Under the pieces are notes generated by a model. It was not told the DNA's origin. It saw only the letters and a program-made list of their open reading frames with translations, and did no database searches. From NCBI RefSeq assembly GCF_002854065.1, contig NZ_CP024147.1: a stretch of DNA of 64,000 bases. One strand, 5' to 3'. Origin of the DNA: Escherichia coli. Lineage in GTDB: Bacteria > Pseudomonadota > Gammaproteobacteria > Enterobacterales > Enterobacteriaceae. The position numbers and the translations under genes are program-made. Position 1 is the stretch's first letter; each line of letters starts with the position of its first letter. This document shows, one piece after another, positions 4,608 to 17,451 of the stretch.

Positions 4608-5336
4608 TTAATCACTGAATACCAACGAATCTAATACACCTTGTCCACTATGAACTCCTCCTTCAACTGACTCTGCTGATTTGCTACGGATCAAATACCC
4701 AGCAAAACTGTGATCAGCGCTAGATGCATTGTTACCTATCTGGACGGAGAACATTCCTAGTTCGCTGACCAGATCAGTAACCTGATATAACTCCCCTTTA
4801 CGGACAACCAGAGAAGGTGTAGCTCGCGGGACAGGATGTATCCGACGCATGAACGACCAGGATTGATATTGCAGCGGGTCAAGTCTTGCCAGTTTTAACT
4901 GGATATCAGAGCCAAACAGACAATGCCCACCCCCTTCGCCCTGGTTTTTGAGAACCCATGAATCAGAAGGAGACTCTTTTACAATGCTGATTGTATCAGG
5001 GCTAACAGGAAGCATTTCGCCCAACACCATTTTTATGATATCAACCTCTTCCGGCTTCAGTCCAAAAGCAATCAGTTCATCGCACCCCAAATGAGAGAGC
5101 AACATTTGTACTCGCTTACTTGTCGCAAGTTGCTGAGCGACTGTTGCATTCACCGCAACTCGGTGCTGCTCAATCAATACTCGCGTGGCCATTAGCGTCT
5201 GGCAACACTCCTTCTCATTGAGACTGGCGGCTTCATAATCTGAGTATTGATATCCGGCACGTAAGTAAACAGAAGTAGTATGGGTGTATGAACTTGTCAT
5301 TGTTTTGACATTTATCAAATATATTCGATTATGCAT
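4608..5336 (-). CDS. Hypothetical protein (242 aa; alternative start at 5300 gives 230 aa), divergent from arsR; contains vicinal Cys pair (KECCQT)
   Basis: Only long ORF covering this interval; convergent with the ATPase gene; no recognised family; weak RBS at both candidate starts. Confidence 0.45.
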   Translation of the reverse strand: MHNRIYLINVKTMTSSYTHTTSVYLRAGYQYSDYEAASLNEKECCQTLMATRVLIEQHRVAVNATVAQQLATSKRVQMLLSHLGCDELIAFGLKPEEVDIIKMVLGEMLPVSPDTISIVKESPSDSWVLKNQGEGGGHCLFGSDIQLKLARLDPLQYQSWSFMRRIHPVPRATPSLVVRKGELYQVTDLVSELGMFSVQIGNNASSADHSFAGYLIRSKSAESVEGGVHSGQGVLDSLVFSD

Positions 5337-9734: not shown

Positions 9735-10271
9735 TCAGAGCATCATGCCTGAATCCGATGGTAACGTGCTGTTCCCTTCGCCCAGATTTCGTTGCAGCAA
9801 CACTGTGTCAAGCCAACGACCATGCTTGAAGCCAATATTTTTCAGCGTACCAATCTCAGTAAATCCAACCTGCTGATGGACTTTCAGCGAACCTTGATTA
9901 TTGCTATCGCCGACAATAGCAATCATCTGCCGATAGCCGTGAGTTTCTGCCCAGGCAATGACGTAGCGCAGCAACGCTTTTCCTGTCCCCTGACGCTGTG
10001 CGTCCGGGTGAATATAAATCGAATCTTCGAGAGTGTGGCGGTAGGCGTAGCGTTCACGGTAACGAGTGAGATAACAATACCCGATAACCTTTTCTTCCTC
10101 TAACGCGACAACCCACGGTAGCGCCTGATTGCGGATCTTTTTCAGGCGGGTAAGCATCTCGTGGGTATCCGGAGGTTCAGTTTCAAAGCTGGCGGTACCG
10201 TGAAGAACATGATGGGCGTAGATATCGCGTATAGCGGGGATGTGCTTTTCTTCTGCGTTAACGATTTTCAT
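9735..10271 (-). CDS. GNAT acetyltransferase of the phosphinothricin-acetyltransferase family (ArsN1-like arsinothricin N-acetyltransferase candidate)
   Basis: 178 aa; resembles E. coli MnaT/PAT proteins (…IYAHHVLHGTASFETEPP…YIHPDAQRQGTGKALL…); positioned in an ars island. Confidence 0.7.
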   Translation of the reverse strand: MKIVNAEEKHIPAIRDIYAHHVLHGTASFETEPPDTHEMLTRLKKIRNQALPWVVALEEEKVIGYCYLTRYRERYAYRHTLEDSIYIHPDAQRQGTGKALLRYVIAWAETHGYRQMIAIVGDSNNQGSLKVHQQVGFTEIGTLKNIGFKHGRWLDTVLLQRNLGEGNSTLPSDSGMML

Positions 10272-11812: not shown

Positions 11813-13570
11813 TTACTTCGCCATTTCTTCCAGCAGGTCAATACCAACCGGCTCTTCGCTCTGTAGCGCTGTTAATGCAATACGCTTTGCATACTGCTCT
11901 TCCACATCAGAGATGAGAGGCAGCTCGCGGTTAGCTCTGGTCTTCAGGAAAGGTGAAGACGGCTCAGCAGCTGCCAGGCTGTTATTCACAACCCATGCCC
12001 ACGGCTCAATGCCAGCCCGACGCAGATCCTGCTGCAGGTTAGCGGCTTCCAGTACAGGTGTCGTTTCGGCAAGCGTCACGATAATCACCTTCGTCTTCTC
12101 CGGGTCCTGCAATTGCATCATTGGCGTCATCACATGGTCATGTGTTTGCCCCATCTGGCGCACCATTTCCCGGTGATAGGCTCCAGTCGCATCCAGTAGC
12201 AGAAGTGTGTGACCCGTTGGCGCGGTGTCCATAATGACAAAATGATCGTCTGCCTCTTTGATTATCCGCGAGAATGCCTGGAAGACGGCGATCTCTTCAG
12301 TACATGGTGAGCGGAGATCTTCTTCCAGCACCGCCAGCCCCTCAGCGTCTAATCCTTTGCCCTGATTCTCCAGTACAAAACGGCGATAACGCTCTGTCTC
12401 CACCTTCGGATCGATACGGCTGACCTGCAGATTTGGCAGCGAGCCATCCAGCGTGTAAGACAGATGTGCTGCCGGATCGGACGTGGTCAGATGGACTTTA
12501 TGACCGCGTTTTGCCAGCGATACCGCGACCGATGCTGCAACAGTCGTTTTGCCCACGCCGCCTTTCCCCATCGTCATTACCAGCCCTTTGCCTGTCAGAC
12601 TGAGTTCATCCACTAACGAGGAAAGTTTCGGTAAATCCAGAGCATTTAGCGTTGTATTGGAGAGAGACAGTGGCGCTTTGCTCTCTGTTAATAACTCTCG
12701 CAGGGCTTCCAGACCGACCAGATTAAATGGCTTCAGAGACAGCTGCGAGCGGGGAAGATTAACCAGATTATCAGGCATTGCCTGTAATGCTTTTTCTTCC
12801 CGAGCCAGAATACTTTGCGCCAGTGGATCATTTTCACCGGCAAACGGTGGCAGCACACCATTAATGGCAAGGTGTTGATGCTGCAAACCAATAGCAGAAA
12901 GCTCATCGTGCGTATGAGAAACCTCTTTCAGCGTTGAAGCCTGAGCTCGGGCAACCAGCACTAAGCGTGTGAGAGCTGCGTCGGACAGCGCTTTAACCGC
13001 ATCGGAGTACTGGTGCTGTTGTTTCTCAAGCCCTACCAGAGGTCCAAGGTTTGCAGCGGCATCAGGGTTCGCTTCGAGATAACCGCTCCAGGCTCCCGGC
13101 AATTCAAGCATGCGGATGGTGTGACCGGTTGGCGCGGTATCAAATACGATATGGTCATATTTTCCCCGCAGCTCATGATTGGTCAGCAGACCAGTAAACT
13201 CATCAAACGCAGCGATTTCCGTGGTGCATGAGCCGGAAAGCTGCTCTTCAATGCTGCTGACCACATCGGCTGGCATCAGCCCGCGAACAGGGTCGAGCAC
13301 ACGGTCACGATAGGCTTGCGCTGCAGCCATCGGATCAACTTCCATCGCGGCAAGATTTTCTACAGTACTGATATCTGTGATTCGGTGGCCGATAGTCTGG
13401 CTAAATACCTGGCCGACATTGGAAGCCGGATCGGTACTCACCAGAAGCGTTCTCTTACCCTGATCGGCCAGCCATACTGCAGTAGCACAGGCCAGGGATG
13501 TCTTACCCACTCCACCTTTACCAGTGAAGAAGATGAACGGGGGAATGTCTTTTAAAAATGGCATATTCAT
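11813..13570 (-). CDS. arsA: Second arsenite-stimulated ATPase ArsA (divergent paralogue)
   Basis: Two GKGGVGKT / DTAPTGHT sets; start MNMPFLKD with RBS GAGGAG. Confidence 0.85.
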   Translation of the reverse strand: MNMPFLKDIPPFIFFTGKGGVGKTSLACATAVWLADQGKRTLLVSTDPASNVGQVFSQTIGHRITDISTVENLAAMEVDPMAAAQAYRDRVLDPVRGLMPADVVSSIEEQLSGSCTTEIAAFDEFTGLLTNHELRGKYDHIVFDTAPTGHTIRMLELPGAWSGYLEANPDAAANLGPLVGLEKQQHQYSDAVKALSDAALTRLVLVARAQASTLKEVSHTHDELSAIGLQHQHLAINGVLPPFAGENDPLAQSILAREEKALQAMPDNLVNLPRSQLSLKPFNLVGLEALRELLTESKAPLSLSNTTLNALDLPKLSSLVDELSLTGKGLVMTMGKGGVGKTTVAASVAVSLAKRGHKVHLTTSDPAAHLSYTLDGSLPNLQVSRIDPKVETERYRRFVLENQGKGLDAEGLAVLEEDLRSPCTEEIAVFQAFSRIIKEADDHFVIMDTAPTGHTLLLLDATGAYHREMVRQMGQTHDHVMTPMMQLQDPEKTKVIIVTLAETTPVLEAANLQQDLRRAGIEPWAWVVNNSLAAAEPSSPFLKTRANRELPLISDVEEQYAKRIALTALQSEEPVGIDLLEEMAK

Positions 13571-13590
13571 CAGTGATAGCTCCTCTGGAA

Positions 13591-13953
13591 TTAAGGCATA
13601 CGTGGAATGCTGCAGCAACGCGGTTGCGTACTGTCTTCACTCCAGTCCTGAGTTAGCGGAATATCTGCCCAACGGGCGATATCTTCACGAGTCGGCAGTT
13701 TGCCTGCCATCACCAGCTTGCCGTCGAGCAAGGTGACAGGGAGGGATTCCATCCCTGATGTGTTCATAAACTCTTTGATTACAGGGGTATTCAGGAACTG
13801 CTGCGGGTTTTTCGCAAGGCTGTAGCGCTGAATATCAACGCCATTCTTTTTCGCCCATTCGGCGCTGGCATTCCATTTGACGGCTTCGTCGCTCACCACA
13901 ACGCTGCTGGTTGCGCAGCAGCCTGCTGCTTCAAAGATCTCAATTTTTGACAT
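13591..13953 (-). CDS. arsD: ArsD-like metallochaperone (divergent; only the N-terminal CC pair conserved)
   Basis: 120 aa, MSKIEIFEAAGCCATS…, immediately upstream of arsA2. Confidence 0.7.
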   Translation of the reverse strand: MSKIEIFEAAGCCATSSVVVSDEAVKWNASAEWAKKNGVDIQRYSLAKNPQQFLNTPVIKEFMNTSGMESLPVTLLDGKLVMAGKLPTREDIARWADIPLTQDWSEDSTQPRCCSIPRMP

Positions 13954-14028: not shown

Positions 14029-14574
14029 TTAATTCATTTTTTTGTGGCAGCAGACAAAAGATGTGTCATCCGCCTCAATCTGGCAGAGTTCTGTCATCGT
14101 CTCTTTCAGGTGTTTTCTGGCCCGAAGTAGTCGGGATTTAAACGCTGTAAGCGTGATTCCCCATTCATCGGCCAGGGACTGCTGGGGACGCCGGTTAAGG
14201 TCGGACTCTTCAATCAACCACCGCTCATCTTCGGGTAAAGCCTGTAATGTTTCAGGCAGGCAAATATCCAGTGTTGAGATTGCATCAAGGGATGCGTCTG
14301 TTAATAGGGCATCTTCTTCCAGCTCAACAAACGCCCTGGTGGTTCGGTACTCATCAATCAGCAGATTCCTTGCTACCCGATACAACCAGGCTCGCGGATT
14401 TTCCATCTCACAAAAAATGTCTGAATGGGCTCGGGCACGCAGGAAAAGGTCTTGCAGAAGGTCTGCTGCTTTTTCGCTATCGCCTGTCTTCGATATCAGA
14501 AAGCGAGAAAATTCGCCTTCATGCTGCCGCCAGAACACGCTCATACAGCTGTTGAATGCTGTTATGTCACTCAT
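14029..14574 (-). CDS. ECF (sigma-70 family, group IV) sigma factor with C-terminal Cys-containing tail (…ELCQIEADDTSFVCCHKKMN)
   Basis: Region 2 (…NPRAWLYRVARNLLIDEYR) and region 4 (…SLADEWGITLTAFKSRLLRARKHL) motifs; ATG 14574 with RBS GAAGG overlapping arsH stop codon. Confidence 0.75.
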   Translation of the reverse strand: MSDITAFNSCMSVFWRQHEGEFSRFLISKTGDSEKAADLLQDLFLRARAHSDIFCEMENPRAWLYRVARNLLIDEYRTTRAFVELEEDALLTDASLDAISTLDICLPETLQALPEDERWLIEESDLNRRPQQSLADEWGITLTAFKSRLLRARKHLKETMTELCQIEADDTSFVCCHKKMN

Positions 14575-14582
14575 ACTAACCT

Positions 14583-15293
14583 TCAAATTTTGCTCTGATT
14601 AACCCGTCGGGAAAGTTCTTCTGCAGACTCTTTTCGTTCACTGTAGCGATCGACAAGATAGGCAGAATTTGCCCGGGTCAACAATGTAAACTTCATCAAT
14701 TCTTCCATCACATCCACGATGCGGTCGTAATATGGTGACGGTTTCATACGTCCATCGTCATCAAACTCCTGCCAGGCTTTTGCTACCGAGGACTGGTTCG
14801 GAATAGTGATCATTCTCATCCAACGACCAAGCACGCGCATCTGGTTGACTGTGTTGAATGACTGGGAACCTCCACACACTTGCATAACAGCCAGAGTTTT
14901 TCCCTGAGAAGGACGAACAGCACCTTCAGATAATGGTATCCAGTCAATTTGTGCCTTCATAATACCAGTCATCGCTCCGTGTCGTTCCGGAGAGCACCAC
15001 ACCATTCCTTCAGACCAGCGGACCAGTTCACGCAACTCCATAACTTTTGGATGTGACTCCGGTGCATCATCAGGAAGTGGAAGGCCAGATGGATTAAAAA
15101 TGCGGACTTCTGCGCCCATCGCAGTTAACAACCGACCAGCTTCCTCTGTCGCCAGTCGACTGTATGAGCGCTCACGAACTGAGCCATAAAGCATTAGTAT
15201 ACGAGGGGGGTGAGATATTGTCGGTATCCCCATTTTTTGCTCAGTTATTGCAGCATCAAATAAATCAGGAACTATATTATTTAGCTTATTCAT
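14583..15293 (-). CDS. arsH: ArsH, NADPH-dependent FMN reductase (organoarsenical oxidase)
   Basis: 236 aa; …[18 protein letters not shown]… flavodoxin-like motif typical of ArsH. Confidence 0.85.
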
Positions 15294-15391
15294 TTTTTAT
15301 TTTCCCTATAGATTCGGGATCTTAGTAGGATGGATTCAGACGGTTCGATGCAGCTTTCGTCAATCATGACAGTTATGAGTTTTTCGGTTAC

Positions 15392-15715
15392 TTATCCATT
15401 TTTGCCAGCGGGTTCCGTAACATCTGTTTTACTGTTTACACAGCACTCTTCACGTAAGAATTCGATGATAGCTTCCAGTATTTCGTATTGAGAGACGCAC
15501 ATGAGCGTTCGACTCTCCCGGTTTTGTGTGACGAGTCCTACTGATACTAAGGCTGAAATATGATGACTTAACGTTGATGAGGGAATGCCAAGCTGCTTTT
15601 GCAATTCACCTACAGGCAAACCTTGTTCTCCAGCTTTTACAAGATGTTTGAATATGAACAAACGGGTCGGGTGACCCAGCTCTTTTAGTGCTTTAGCTAC
15701 TTCTTCCAATTGCAT
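15392..15715 (-). CDS. arsR: ArsR/SmtB family repressor, C-terminal vicinal-Cys type (…REECCVNSK…)
   Basis: 107 aa; HTH …LPVGELQKQLGIPSSTLSHHISALVSVGLV…; lacks the CVC site of R773 ArsR. Confidence 0.8.
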   Translation of the reverse strand: MQLEEVAKALKELGHPTRLFIFKHLVKAGEQGLPVGELQKQLGIPSSTLSHHISALVSVGLVTQNRESRTLMCVSQYEILEAIIEFLREECCVNSKTDVTEPAGKNG

Positions 15716-15735
15716 GTGACAACCCTCTGTCTAAT

Positions 15736-15798
15736 GATATTTCGATAATACCAGAAATATCTTGACCAGAATTATATTTCGATTATTCTAGAAATGTA
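15736..15798. promoter_or_regulatory. Two tandem imperfect palindromic operator-like sites (GATATTTCGATAATACCAGAAATATC at 15736-15761 and TATATTTCGATTATTCTAGAAATGTA at 15773-15798) in the arsR2/arsP divergent intergenic region
   Basis: Seen directly; candidate ArsR2 binding sites. Confidence 0.45.
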
Positions 15799-15820
15799 GA
15801 TTTTGTCAAGAGGGTTTAGT

Positions 15821-16954
15821 ATGAATAGTTGGATTTCTATGCTGCAAGATGCCGCAGAGATGTTTTTGTTTTTGGCCGTCGAGCTATCTTTGCTGTTTAT
15901 TGTCATCAGTGCCGGTGTGAGCCTGATAAGGCAAAAGGTCCCGGACCATAAAATCCAGCAATTGTTGGGGGCGAAAAAAGGAAAAGGCTACCTGCTGGCC
16001 TCGTTGTTGGGAGCCGTTACCCCTTTCTGTAGTTGCTCAACAATTCCAATGCTACGAGGGTTGTTGTCGGCGAAAGCAGGGTTTGGTCCGACACTCACTT
16101 TTTTGTTTGTTTCACCGTTGCTTAATCCCATTATCGTGGGGTTAATGTGGGTTACCTTTGGCTGGAAAGTAACTTTGTTGTACGCGATCATCGCTGCCGG
16201 TGTCTCAGTCCTTGCCAGTATCGTATTGGATTTACTAGGATTTGAACGTCATATTGTTGATCACAAAAACTCAGCATCAAGTGGTTGCGCCACCAAATGT
16301 GATGATTCCGAAGCTTCGGTAAAAACGTCGGCGGGTTCCAGTTGTTGCAGCACTAGCTCGACTCAATTGCCTGTAAAAACGAGTTGCTGTACTTCATCAG
16401 CGAACCCCATAATTAACTTAAGGACGGTAAAGAACGAGCAGAACGTATCAACGTGTTGTTCATCAATATCATCTGAACAACCAGCTGTTAGCTGTTGCAG
16501 CAGCGAGAATCTGGGCAATGTGAATCTCACACCGAATACCACCTCTGGCCCAATAAAGTTAGCTATGAAAGATGCCTTACAGCAGTTTAAGGATGTTCTG
16601 CCTTATCTTTTGTTAGGTGTATTAATAGGTTCATTTATTTATGGCTTTATCCCTTCAGAGTGGATTGCAGCTCATGCCGGAGCAGATAATCCCTTAGCCA
16701 TACCGCTGAGTGCAGTTGTTGGTATTCCGTTGTATATACGCGCAGAGGCAGTGATACCACTTGCATCAGTGCTGATGACTAAAGGAATGGGCCTGGGGGC
16801 ATTAATGGCCTTGATAATCGGTAGTGCTGGAGCGAGTTTGACAGAAGTAATACTGCTTAAATCAATGTTCAGAATGCCTATGATAGTCGCTTTTCTGACA
16901 GTTATCTTAGGTATGGCAATTCTAATGGGTTATCTGACTCAATTCTTGTTTTAA
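15821..16954 (+). CDS. arsP: ArsP-type organoarsenical efflux permease with Cys/Ser-rich loop
   Basis: TPFCSCS motif recalled for ArsP; start ATG 15821 after RBS GAGGG; central loop has four CC pairs. Confidence 0.8.
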   Translation: MNSWISMLQDAAEMFLFLAVELSLLFIVISAGVSLIRQKVPDHKIQQLLGAKKGKGYLLASLLGAVTPFCSCSTIPMLRGLLSAKAGFGPTLTFLFVSPLLNPIIVGLMWVTFGWKVTLLYAIIAAGVSVLASIVLDLLGFERHIVDHKNSASSGCATKCDDSEASVKTSAGSSCCSTSSTQLPVKTSCCTSSANPIINLRTVKNEQNVSTCCSSISSEQPAVSCCSSENLGNVNLTPNTTSGPIKLAMKDALQQFKDVLPYLLLGVLIGSFIYGFIPSEWIAAHAGADNPLAIPLSAVVGIPLYIRAEAVIPLASVLMTKGMGLGALMALIIGSAGASLTEVILLKSMFRMPMIVAFLTVILGMAILMGYLTQFLF

Positions 16955-16965
16955 AGCATTACAAC

Positions 16966-16997
16966 AAGGGTCTTCTGCCTCAAGATCGAAGACCCTT
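16966..16997. terminator. Hairpin AAGGGTCTTC-12 nt-GAAGACCCTT downstream of arsP (weak T-tract; terminator-like)
   Basis: Seen directly. Confidence 0.35.
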
Positions 16998-17451
16998 CAG
17001 TTTCACTAGCAGATTGCCAGTTCTAGTAGCCAATTAAGAGAGGAGTGGATTGTTCTTTGGGTATTCGCAAACCCAGCAACGGTAAAATCAGGACTGACCC
17101 AAAAATTCAACGAGAATCCACCCCTTTAAATCTTTGATCCCTTCCCGGAAGCAGTATACGGCATATCTGAGTTAATCGTTTCTATTGGAGCTTCAGGGAA
17201 GCGACTCTTAATAGAAATCTGTTAATACTGTCCAAAACTGATTCCCTTTATCCCGAGCTGAACCGTAACAAAACCATCTCTCTTTGAGATCTCACATACT
17301 CAACGAACATAAGCCATTGCTGCTACATACAATTTTACGAAGCATATCACCTTAGTTGATCATGAAATCCATCCTGAATACAGATTGATTTTTATACTAT
17401 ATTAAGTGAGATATGATCTTCTTTAGAGTTGAGCTAAAAGGAGTCGAGGCG

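Follow-up and report, generated by a model that had tools for sequence, protein, structure and literature searches.

The window, by which we mean the whole 64,000-nucleotide stretch of Escherichia coli DNA analysed here, encodes an ArsP-family permease whose two membrane halves are joined by a long loop containing several vicinal cysteine pairs. Comparison with homologues indicates that the loop cysteines are kept by selection while other loop positions drift, and conserved cysteines within a drifting loop suggest a built-in arsenic-catching tether. The gene and its presumed active-site motif are as follows:

15821..16954, + strand: ArsP-family (PF03773) permease gene, 377 aa, stop codon included (ORF list, Pfam, RefSeq)
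16019..16039, + strand: TPFCSCS motif, aa 67-73 (Cys70, Cys72), helix-break-helix; presumed translocation-site thiols

Ahead of the ATG at 15821 stands AGAGGG (15809-15814), a Shine-Dalgarno sequence, and RefSeq annotates the permease from the same ATG, with the product name 'permease' and the same coordinates in NZ_CP182139.1; given this agreement and the Shine-Dalgarno sequence, an alternative start at TTG 15803 was judged unlikely. Two reverse-strand ORFs overlapping the gene (15988-16191 and 16363-16542) were set aside as artefacts of the ORF list, the forward frame being the conserved one.

The permease is a member of the ArsP family. Its residues 10-375 match Pfam ArsP_1 over profile positions 4-294 of 294 with 186.4 bits (cutoff 32.3), and the gene lies beside an ars cluster under an ArsR regulator. 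ArsP proteins of 'cluster 2' carry a C(S/T)C motif with a tPF prefix in a membrane segment (Yang et al. 2015, PMC4435449), and both elements are found here, aa 66-74 reading VTPFCSCST. Across 92 homologues T67-S73 are at least 90% conserved and F69 is invariant, and the AF2 model places helices at 55-66 and 71-83 with a break at 67-70. ArsP architecture consists of two homologous halves with a hydrophilic loop of variable size between them (PMC7176098). The permease shows the same build: its first half (aa 26-139) matches the second half of Campylobacter jejuni ArsP (201-315) by BLASTP with E = 0.029, and the secondary-structure pattern of its two halves is mirrored in the AF2 model. The sequence-only reading of this DNA had called the gene an ArsP permease with a TPFCSCS motif, and the ORF, the PF03773 match, the identity to C. 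jejuni ArsP given below and the ars context all bear this out.

PGAP and RefSeq name the protein only 'permease', whereas NCBI names its C. jejuni and C. coli counterparts 'organoarsenical efflux permease ArsP'; an NCBIfam scan of the permease returned no ArsP model among its matches, and the missing name is a matter of annotation rather than of biology. The best NCBIfam matches were the SO_0444 Cu/Zn efflux family (NF033936, 123 bits against a curated equivalog cutoff of 300) and SaoE (NF040736, 91.7 bits against 325), both under cutoff, which places the permease outside either family. These two branches share PF03773 and the CSC motif with the permease, and neither occurs in an ars context. 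Because the TPFCSCS motif is nearly invariant across PF03773, the SO_0444 and SaoE branches included, it does not discriminate substrate.

The closest characterised relative is C. jejuni ArsP (TC 2.A.119), which likewise combines PF03773, a two-half architecture and an ars-operon context. Chen and colleagues reportedly demonstrated organoarsenical transport in 2015, for Campylobacter ArsP only (summarised in PMC6205960), and only Cys65 and Cys67 of the C. jejuni protein are said in that work to be required. The two proteins align over their full length (34% identity, 52% positives, E = 2e-65), the TPFCSCS motif is common to both, and Cys65/67 align with Cys70/72 of the permease. They differ in that C. 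jejuni ArsP has 315 aa, a central loop about half as long and a single loop CC (Cys169/170), while the permease has 377 aa, a 112-aa loop and four CC pairs plus a CxxxC; all 65 alignment gaps between the two fall in the loop. That C. jejuni ArsP functions with a single loop CC counts against the tether proposed below. A literature search on ArsP with Cys65 or vicinal cysteine found nothing relevant. The Ion-transporter-superfamily fold (DASS proteins such as LaINDY; ArsB, PDB 10tp) gave no detectable sequence similarity and nothing significant by Foldseek, and ArsP, with ~290 structured residues, is much smaller than those proteins; the literature assigns ArsP to the TOG superfamily, with a published topology model of 4+4 TMS.

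The loop and its cysteines map as follows:

16241..16549, + strand: central hydrophilic loop between the homologous halves, aa 141-243 (AF2 pLDDT, C. jejuni ArsP alignment)
16286..16300, + strand: CxxxC (Cys156, Cys160; GCATKC); Cys156 conserved in 96% of 119 homologues
16343..16348, + strand: CC pair 1 (Cys175/176), 'extra' in the 377-aa lineage; lost in 54-nt and 96-nt deletion alleles
16385..16390, + strand: CC pair 2 (Cys189/190); 93% and 75% conserved (119 homologues), lost in the 96-nt deletion allele
16454..16459, + strand: CC pair 3 (Cys212/213) (translation, homologue alignment)
16493..16498, + strand: CC pair 4 (Cys225/226), the most conserved pair; 98% and 96% across Enterobacteriaceae and Aeromonas homologues
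16313..16420, + strand: loop module A, aa 165-200 (SVKTSAGSSCCSTSSTQLPVKTSCCTSSANPIINL); aligns with module B
16424..16531, + strand: loop module B, aa 202-237 (TVKNEQNVSTCCSSISSEQPAVSCCSSENLGNVNL); aligns with module A

Measured between alignment anchors 141-252, the loop is 112 aa long, against a family range of 28-137 aa and a median of 49 aa, and aa 151-250 consist of 23% Ser, 11% Thr and 10% Cys, in keeping with the earlier description of an expanded, Ser/Thr/Cys-rich loop with four CC pairs. The spacing of successive pairs had been put at ~15-20 residues, which is roughly right; the actual values are 14, 23 and 13. Pair 1 is present in only 11-14% of 119 close homologues and falls in a gap in 86%. 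Loop shuffles contain 0.74 CC pairs on average and reach four or more with P = 5e-4, and the pairing is therefore no by-product of loop composition. Modules A and B align with a score of 61 (CC-preserving shuffles 37.5 +/- 7.3, P = 0.0055), so that the two loop halves are related at the protein level and the loop is built from repeated units, as the sequence-only reading had supposed. A Pfam search found no ArsD or thioredoxin match in the loop.

This repetition does not extend to the DNA, for which the same reading had claimed a repetitive coding sequence: Tandem Repeats Finder reported no array at score >=30 across 15700-17100, and a repeat search of the gene gave only 12-13-nt matches forced by the S-C-C-S codons. 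We accordingly rejected a slippage-prone, hypermutable tandem-repeat (contingency) tract, since no head-to-tail DNA repeats were found in the gene. What the coding sequence does contain is dispersed direct repeats of 7-9 nt, two sets of which coincide with the end-points of natural deletions:

16319..16327, + strand: first GTAAAAACG direct repeat (codons V-K-T), at the left boundary of the 54-nt deletion
16373..16381, + strand: second GTAAAAACG direct repeat, at the right boundary of the 54-nt deletion
16317..16323, + strand: first CGGTAAA direct repeat, at the left boundary of the 96-nt deletion
16425..16431, + strand: second CGGTAAA direct repeat, at the right boundary of the 96-nt deletion

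The in-frame 54-nt deletion, carried for example by pJSMCR1_1, removes one CC unit, and the 96-nt deletion, also in frame, removes two. In a systematic sample of 60 E. coli records the shorter deletion occurred 15 times and the longer 12 times, and both are common on plasmids. Units are lost by deletion between short direct repeats, and circulating alleles therefore have two, three or four CC pairs; all are in frame and retain at least two. Single cysteine losses occur as well, for example SYCT in homologues P0001 and P0005. Because alleles with two, three and four pairs circulate alongside such losses, no individual CC pair is essential, and the benefit of the pairs may be small. Of the earlier proposal that the loop could expand or contract, contraction is documented by these alleles, while we infer expansion only from the old internal duplication.

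Three sets of comparisons bear on how the cysteines evolve. Within the close group, loop cysteine columns are 92% conserved, compared with 66% in the remaining loop columns and 93% in the membrane core; among 119 homologues the cysteine columns are again conserved like the core and the Ser/Thr columns are not (0.64 versus 0.22-0.25). The loop evolves at a dN/dS of 0.30-0.46 and the core at 0.03-0.05, which makes the loop about ten times faster than the core yet still below 1. Across 95 family representatives, 63 CC pairs were observed in the loop against 12.6 +/- 3.1 in shuffles, a five-fold excess; at least one pair is found in 32 of the 95, with up to seven. A loop with CC pairs is hence common in the family, but its length and CC number are highly variable, which disposes of the objection, raised with the original proposal, that the loop might be both common and invariant. 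The alignment with the characterised C. jejuni protein, suggested at the same time, gave the loop-confined length difference described above. The remaining 63 representatives have no loop CC pair and 32 of the 95 have no loop cysteine at all, and because of this the basic transport cycle does not need the loop thiols.

In the AF2 model pLDDT is mostly above 90 in the core but falls below 50 at aa 168-224 and 226-237, and aa 168-237 are predicted to be disordered. Both loop flanks are K/R-rich across 92 homologues, and on this charge distribution the loop probably faces the cytoplasm, an assignment of topology that rests on charge statistics.

Upstream of the permease, on the opposite strand, lies a regulator, and between the two genes are sequence elements of a promoter region:

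15392..15715, - strand: divergent ArsR/SmtB regulator, 107 aa, C-terminal EECC (Cys91/92), Cys73; no third Cys downstream
15739..15758, no strand assigned: operator-like palindrome 1, ATTTCGATAATACCAGAAAT (ATTTC-N10-GAAAT), read from the sequence; putative function
15776..15795, no strand assigned: operator-like palindrome 2, ATTTCGATTATTCTAGAAAT, read from the sequence; putative function

Palindrome 2 lies just downstream of TTGACC (15762-15767) and contains TATTCT (15784-15789), two elements that likely form the permease promoter. An EECC-type ArsR stands directly upstream of the permease in all 17 related loci that include upstream DNA. The SpArsR type is defined by a C-terminal vicinal cysteine pair without the third cysteine of AfArsR (PMC11868830, PMC13236881); such a two-cysteine ArsR is specific for MAs(III) and controls the arsP promoter in Shewanella putrefaciens (PMC11868830, PMC13236881, PMC12124457). 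The regulator in the window has this cysteine arrangement, its C-terminal stretch (EECCVNSKTD...) containing no cysteine downstream of Cys91/92. Among its best 120 ArsR homologues the CC is kept in 115, and 89 have no further cysteine within 12 aa. SpArsR of S. putrefaciens 200 is absent from these best 120 matches, the nearest Shewanella among them being S. colwelliana at 68% identity; a genome-contig search with the single permease protein likewise returned six loci, none of them Shewanella.

We tentatively propose, with a confidence that stops a little short of an even chance, that the protein is an ArsP-type exporter whose loop is a cytoplasmic thiol tether, catching trivalent (organo)arsenicals and passing them to Cys70/Cys72. 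We infer the substrate of permease and loop, its binding and its hand-off along the following lines. Cys70 and Cys72, where a helical hairpin has its tip or break, would be the substrate-translocating thiols of a secondary exporter whose two inverted homologous halves are joined by a disordered, Ser/Thr-rich cytoplasmic loop of ~100 residues. Each CC pair would be a two-thiol site for a trivalent arsenical, and MAs(III), phenylarsenite and roxarsone(III) need exactly two sulfur ligands; the loop would therefore be a capture tether. It would concentrate substrate at the cytoplasmic mouth of the permease, and thiol exchange would then move the substrate from the loop to Cys70/Cys72, by which it would be exported. 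The divergent ArsR, sensing through its own vicinal pair, would induce expression. The loop itself is modular, with VK(T/N)...S-CC-S units, and arose by duplication of a two-CC module.

Several known systems offer precedents for such a segment. ArsD binds As(III)/Sb(III) through vicinal cysteine pairs, and MerT/MerA use such pairs to relay Hg(II), while the His-rich loops of CDF and ZIP transporters and the Cys-rich N-terminal domains of P1B ATPases are flexible, length-variable cytoplasmic segments that capture substrate or regulate transport; these are other families with other ligands, whereas here an S-CC-S unit is repeated in a Ser/Thr-rich, predicted disordered loop. In ArsD of the R773 type, the vicinal pairs Cys12-13, 112-113 and 119-120 bind trivalent metalloid, which is then delivered to a transport protein. 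The likeness to the permease lies in these pairs, and the role proposed for the loop is the same in kind, but ArsD is a separate soluble thioredoxin-fold protein feeding the ArsA ATPase, and here the pairs sit in the permease's own loop. By analogy the loop may work like ArsD, yet it is no member of the ArsD family, being predicted disordered and without an ArsD or thioredoxin Pfam match. In SpArsR and AfArsR, too, a CC pair is the arsenical ligand, though within a DNA-binding sensor protein rather than a permease loop.

A predicted disordered, probably cytoplasmic loop with conserved CC pairs could equally bind the ligand through its thiols yet act as a sensor or gate, for instance by releasing an autoinhibitory plug or otherwise changing activity, or as a local buffer that sequesters it, with no conveyor involved. 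That two to four units are tolerated is as compatible with a dose-dependent buffer as with a tether. We nevertheless consider these roles unlikely: with four or five sites on each transporter, a stoichiometric buffer would count for next to nothing beside millimolar glutathione, structured loop-core contacts are not predicted where pLDDT is below 50, and the paired ArsR already provides regulation.

Instead of organoarsenicals, the permease might export Sb(III) or a soft metal (Cu(I), Cd, Zn, Hg), with a metal-binding loop comparable to those of CDF, ZIP and P1B proteins. Distant members rich in CC have heavy-metal genes, not ars genes, around them (the neighbours of P0138 are PadR, CDF and Metal_resist genes), and because of this the ligand could be a soft metal; the best NCBIfam matches with their common CSC motif point the same way, as do Aeromonas copies with no ars genes nearby. 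This reading also strikes us as improbable, given scores far under the family cutoffs, a regulator of the AfArsR/SpArsR C-terminal CC type, and a permease that travels with arsH on plasmids and adjoins ars operons on chromosomes. Plasmids carrying the arsH-arsR module with its divergent permease include p3_W5-6 and others, and in most Enterobacteriaceae loci arsH, arsRBC or arsRDABC adjoins the permease, with only arsRBC in E. fergusonii and E. whittamii. In the window, arsR and arsH adjoin the permease, and the same island holds a complete arsRDABC operon, whose ArsD1 shows ArsD-type vicinal cysteine pairs, and an ArsN1b-like acetyltransferase, a further point against metal export.

The island also contains a second arsDA pair:

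14583..15293, - strand: arsH (organoarsenical oxidase family); TIGR02690, 403.6 bits, cutoff 292
13591-13953: arsD2, in the arsR-arsH operon, divergent from the permease
11813-13618: arsA2, in the arsR-arsH operon, divergent from the permease

This pair has no ArsB/Acr3 gene of its own. In R773 numbering, ArsD2 has Cys12/13 and lacks the equivalent of Cys18, while ArsA2 has the equivalents of Cys113 and Cys422 and an Asn at that of Cys172; both proteins therefore keep only two-thiol sites. These features would suit a loop that is a docking or acceptor site for partners, with ArsD2 and ArsA2 delivering substrate and energising ArsP as an ATP-driven organoarsenical pump, a reading we hold to be very unlikely. 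It can point to arsP-arsD-arsA clusters in Clostridia (PMC12124457) and to a coupling of ArsA with ArsP proposed earlier (Castillo and Saier 2010, as cited in PMC6205960). Most permease copies, however, have no adjacent second arsDA: six plasmid loci (L002, L003, L006, L008, L020, L021) show none within the DNA examined, and Aeromonas veronii (L012) has none nearby. Where arsDA does lie near the permease (Salmonella L009/L010, Citrobacter L013/L017, Aeromonas rivipollensis L016), it shares only ~63% identity with ArsA2, and the enterobacterial examples are part of a complete arsRDABC operon. The CC pairs are nonetheless conserved in all these loci; moreover, ArsB of the window's own arsRDABC operon could serve either ArsA. 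With an equally slim chance, the four CC pairs might form a link in a 'two-thiol' organoarsenical pathway, in which ArsD2 would pass MAs(III) to ArsA2 and the loop, and ArsA2 would dock to make an ATP-driven methylarsenite pump. On that reading the arsenic proteins of this half of the island, namely ArsR, ArsD2, ArsA2 and the loop with its vicinal pairs, would all lack the third cysteine needed by inorganic As(III).

It is just as improbable that the loop is a neutral, fast-evolving low-complexity linker with incidental cysteines, or a periplasmic loop with disulfides: its variable length, the many members without loop cysteines, the loop's tenfold higher dN/dS, the large deletions tolerated in nature and, for an external loop, the published 4+4 TMS model would all allow it, but the core-like conservation of the cysteine columns as opposed to the Ser/Thr columns, the family-wide CC excess and a loop dN/dS below 1 speak against neutrality, and the K/R-rich flanks on both sides against a periplasmic location.

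To our knowledge, ArsP is the only efflux system specific for trivalent organoarsenicals, a group that takes in the natural microbial toxin methylarsenite and roxarsone-type feed additives in their active forms. If the loop is indeed a tether, it would offer an easy way into the recognition of two-coordinate arsenicals by ArsP and would account for a feature that recurs across a large transporter family about which little is understood, with the natural two-, three- and four-unit alleles already at hand as an experimental series. The loop peptide might also find use as a small tag that binds organoarsenicals or as part of a biosensor. Were the loop dispensable, the CC pairs would be a conserved curiosity in a variable linker. 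The two-thiol pathway, if true, would add a new ArsA-partner combination and would mean that cysteine number sets selectivity for inorganic versus organic arsenic along a whole pathway.

The gene, annotated only as 'permease', is mostly plasmid-borne in E. coli, plasmid copies occurring in ~6% of complete E. coli genomes, with pigs, poultry, people and wastewater as sources. A count of 2,591 E. coli records was rejected as a measure of its frequency, consisting mostly of matches to flanking DNA in the query; the permease alone matches 370 E. coli records.

Translation of the permease gene placed its cysteines as follows:

15803/15821-16954, plus strand: permease open reading frame, from the ORF listing
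Residues 66-74 of the 377-aa product, plus strand: VTPFCSCST motif, from the translation
Residues 156 and 160, plus strand: C156 and C160 (GCATKC), from the translation
Residues 175/176, 189/190, 212/213 and 225/226, plus strand: four CC pairs, from the translation

The ATG at 15821, also the start used by RefSeq, has AGAGGG ahead of it at 15809-15814. Ten cysteines lie outside the VTPFCSCST motif, every one of them within residues 156-226, and the segment 151-250 is composed of 23% Ser, 11% Thr and 10% Cys. In shuffled versions of the 112-aa loop the mean was 0.74 CC pairs, and just 0.05% of trials had at least four, so the vicinal arrangement is not explained by composition. The Ser/Thr/Cys-rich loop with four CC pairs proposed in the sequence-only reading was thus confirmed.

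The permease matches Pfam ArsP_1 (PF03773) end to end (186 bits), and is sub-threshold for the NCBIfam SO_0444 Cu/Zn-efflux model (123 against a cutoff of 300) and the SaoE model (92 against 325). Among 92 diverse homologues, conservation of the T-P-F-C-S-C-S motif is 90% or higher; the motif is common to the Cu/Zn and SaoE branches, and is therefore a marker of the family, not of substrate. A profile search built from Campylobacterota relatives led to proteins named 'organoarsenical efflux permease ArsP' by NCBI, of which one, P0425 (315 aa; Cys at 65, 67, 169, 170 and 277), can be aligned with the query from end to end at 34% identity (E = 2e-65). Every one of the 65 gap positions falls within the central loop, and since P0425 carries Cys169/170, characterised ArsP has one vicinal pair in the loop whereas the query has four; the loop is indeed expanded. 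This ArsP-family permease is uncharacterised, widespread and mostly carried on plasmids: the gene alone was found in 346/5,426 complete E. coli genomes, at 389 places, of which 372 are on plasmids.

We then surveyed the loop in 95 full-length representatives of 50%-identity clusters. Its length ranged from 28 to 137 aa (median 49), 63/95 loops held at least one Cys, and CC pairs numbered at least one in 32/95, at least two in 15/95 and at least four in 5/95, the record being seven in one metagenomic protein. Together the loops contain 63 CC pairs, compared to 12.6 ± 3.1 after each was shuffled, most commonly flanked by Ser. The vicinal-cysteine loop is a recurrent, optional and highly variable family feature, and not an invariant one. 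In a set of 120 close homologues (65% identity or more), the FERH-to-KDA anchor segment spans 64-112 aa in full-length proteins and contains between one and four CC pairs; it is longest in the query lineage. Just 11-14% of these homologues have CC pair 1 (175/176), hence an 'extra' unit. Thousands of member sequences belong to a 333-aa homologue (P0046, P0049), 75% identical and with three CC pairs.

Within the close group (84% identity or more), loop Cys columns were 92% conserved, the membrane core 93% and other loop columns 66%; across all 119 homologues the values were 64%, 89% and 22%, with Ser and Thr columns at 23-25%. Against three alleles, dN/dS (Nei-Gojobori) was 0.03-0.05 in the core and 0.30-0.46 in the loop. 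As the Cys columns are conserved like the core and loop dN/dS exceeds that of the core, the spacer can drift freely while the thiols are held; the expanded, modular vicinal-cysteine loop is under selection.

The sequence-only reading had also described the coding DNA as repetitive and able to expand or contract. No DNA tandem repeat was found in the gene. At the protein level, residues 165-200 align with 202-237 (SVKTSAG-SSCCSTSSTQLPVKTSCCTSSANPIINL with TVKNEQNVSTCCSSISSEQPA-VSCCSSENLGNVNL), with a score of 61, where plain shuffles gave 32 ± 6 and CC-intact shuffles 37.5 ± 7.3 (P = 0.0055); this points to a two-CC module of VK(T/N)...S-CC-S units having been duplicated long ago. Contraction is seen in natural alleles, so that proposal holds in its outcome, but it comes about through short dispersed direct repeats and not through a repeat tract. 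A 54-nt in-frame deletion lies exactly between GTAAAAACG copies at 16319 and 16373 and takes out CC pair 1; a 96-nt natural deletion, between CGGTAAA copies at 16317 and 16425, takes out both pair 1 and pair 2. Systematic sampling of 60 of the 370 E. coli records gave 31 full-length alleles, 15 with the 54-nt deletion, 12 with the 96-nt deletion and 2 partial ones; in-frame indels of 12 and 15 nt are also present among alleles. The 54-nt deletion is carried by two different downstream backgrounds, having either arisen repeatedly or spread through recombination. The allele of pJSMCR1_1 (L020) is a chimera with its junction at the repeat: its first 450 nt match the NRG857C-type allele at 100% identity, and the sequence from the loop onward matches the window-type allele at 97%. 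Mixed 5' ends are also seen in two further related loci, L022 and L006. These mosaic plasmid alleles indicate frequent recombination inside the permease gene.

An AlphaFold2 model built with a 92-sequence alignment (mean pLDDT 82, pTM 0.77) has a membrane core mostly above 90, while residues 168-237 fall below 50 with no secondary structure. In each half, a long first helix and a short helix precede a helix-break-helix, after which come a second broken helix and the final helix; the helix-break-helix spans 55-66/71-83, with TPFC at the break, and its mirror copy 293-304/308-320. A PDB sequence search and Foldseek returned no match for the permease. The high values of mean K+R in 92 homologues were those of loop 1 (4.4), the segment following the first hairpin (1.2), the two central-loop flanks (2.0 and 3.7) and the segment preceding the last helix (2.0); the low ones were those of the N-terminus (0.8), loop 5 (0.5), the segment following the second hairpin (0.7) and the C-terminus (0.0). 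From this pattern we infer an N-out/C-out inverted repeat, with the 55-83 hairpin entering from the cytoplasmic side and the central loop cytoplasmic. The charges do not fit the simple published 4+4 TMS model; the family description containing it has a hydrophilic loop of varying size between two homologous halves, and does not mention cysteine (PMC7176098).

Charge statistics and the model together favour a cytoplasmic, disordered loop, and a disordered cytoplasmic tether is its best-supported reading. Each CC pair would offer two sulfur ligands, as needed by MAs(III), phenylarsenite or Rox(III); the loop would increase substrate concentration locally, and thiol exchange would move the arsenical on to Cys70/72, in the hairpin that faces the cytoplasm. 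The same logic underlies the feeding of ArsA by ArsD, the mer vicinal-Cys relays and the loops by which CDF, ZIP and P1B transporters bind metal. Against a strong effect, alleles with two, three and four units all persist, CC pairs are absent from most family members, and C. jejuni ArsP is reportedly functional with one. The loop could instead act as a sensor, gate or buffer, or as a docking site for ArsD2/ArsA2, the second such pair of the island. Its ligand could be a soft metal and not an arsenical: two other four-CC proteins have PadR/CDF/Metal_resist genes or an ArsR-family gene as neighbours, and no ars genes. The seven-CC protein, like the query, has an EECC-type ArsR as its divergent partner. 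The remaining rival is a neutral or periplasmic linker, set against held thiols and a predicted cytoplasmic position. The interpretation in the sequence-only reading is supported in part, the observation behind it fully. The vicinal-cysteine loop appears to be undescribed in the searchable literature; the kind of device is familiar, making it interesting, not astonishing, to a specialist. Natural allelic variants make its role directly testable.

The same ArsR lies ~105 bp upstream on the opposite strand in 17/17 related loci that include upstream DNA (from E. coli, Salmonella, Proteus, Citrobacter, E. fergusonii, E. whittamii, Buttiauxella and Aeromonas), with 79-99% identity across those genera. 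Its cysteines are Cys73 and EECC (Cys91/92), with none downstream; of its best 120 homologues, 115 retain the CC, and 89 lack any other Cys within 12 residues. In AfArsR, As(III) is bound by Cys95, Cys96 and Cys102, whereas S. putrefaciens SpArsR is without the third Cys and has MAs(III) as sole inducer (PMC11868830, PMC13236881); SpArsR also controls the arsP promoter (PMC12124457). By sequence, the cysteine pattern of the permease-paired ArsR is exactly that described for SpArsR. The intergenic region (15716-15820) contains two near-identical 20-bp palindromes, ATTTCGATAATACCAGAAAT and ATTTCGATTATTCTAGAAAT:

15739-15758, intergenic: palindrome 1, ATTTC-N10-GAAAT
15776-15795, intergenic: palindrome 2, ATTTC-N10-GAAAT

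They bracket a sigma-70-like TTGACC-N16-TATTCT promoter-like site, with outer inverted repeats AACCCTCT and AGAGGGTT at either side of the region, and are probably a double ArsR operator.

The ars island of the window sits between IS elements and the chu/ars region and comprises:

arsR-D-A-B-C
ArsN1b-like acetyltransferase gene
TauE-family protein gene
Minus strand: second arsA-arsD pair, SigZ-like sigma factor, arsH and ArsR
Permease, divergent from the minus-strand ArsR, then a recombinase-containing block

Elsewhere in E. coli, the usual form is an arsH-arsR|permease or arsR|permease module. The arsR|permease pair adjoins arsRBC or arsRDABC at chromosomal enterobacterial loci, is often accompanied by arsH or arsH remnants on plasmids, and stands alone in A. 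veronii. With flanks included, a 2.1-kb query hit 2,591 E. coli records, for the most part chromosomal and at 80-90% identity, compared to 370 for the permease gene alone, so some element in 15300-15820 or 16955-17400 is widespread in E. coli.

The second arsD-arsA pair (13591-13953 (-), 11813-13618 (-)) is without its own transporter gene. By the R773 numbering, ArsD2 keeps Cys12/13 and Cys113/114 with Ser at the Cys18 position, and ArsA2 keeps the Cys113 and Cys422 equivalents with Asn at the Cys172 position; ArsA1, from the complete arsRDABC operon, has all three. With the two-Cys ArsR, they form an apparent set of two-thiol sites that might be organoarsenical-selective. The annotated GNAT acetyltransferase at 9735-10271 (-) most resembles ArsN1 family B (arsinothricin resistance; 145 bits, below the cutoff of 210) and, if true to type, would be a third organoarsenical-related function in the island beside arsH and the permease. 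Between arsH and arsD2, the SigZ-like ECF sigma factor (14029-14586 (-); 132 bits, below cutoff) ends in ...SFVCCHKKMN, a further vicinal Cys pair; a 38% identical sigma factor in the Salmonella locus L010 (1357-1899) lies beside a different ArsP_1 permease and a Thioredoxin_3 gene. Downstream of the permease, the block 17413-22271 (+) begins with a tyrosine recombinase (weak Phage_integrase match), followed by three large ORFs with no match in Pfam or NCBIfam; it may serve as a mobility module for the island, which has an IS2 copy on one side and the chromosomal dinQ/arsC/chu region on the other. A 242-aa ORF at 4608-5336 (-) matches solely the C-terminal ATP-binding half of eukaryotic-type glutathione synthase, and plasmid p3_W5-6 has a full-length 'glutathione synthase' of ~479 aa near its permease module, so genes for thiol supply may move together with these ars modules.
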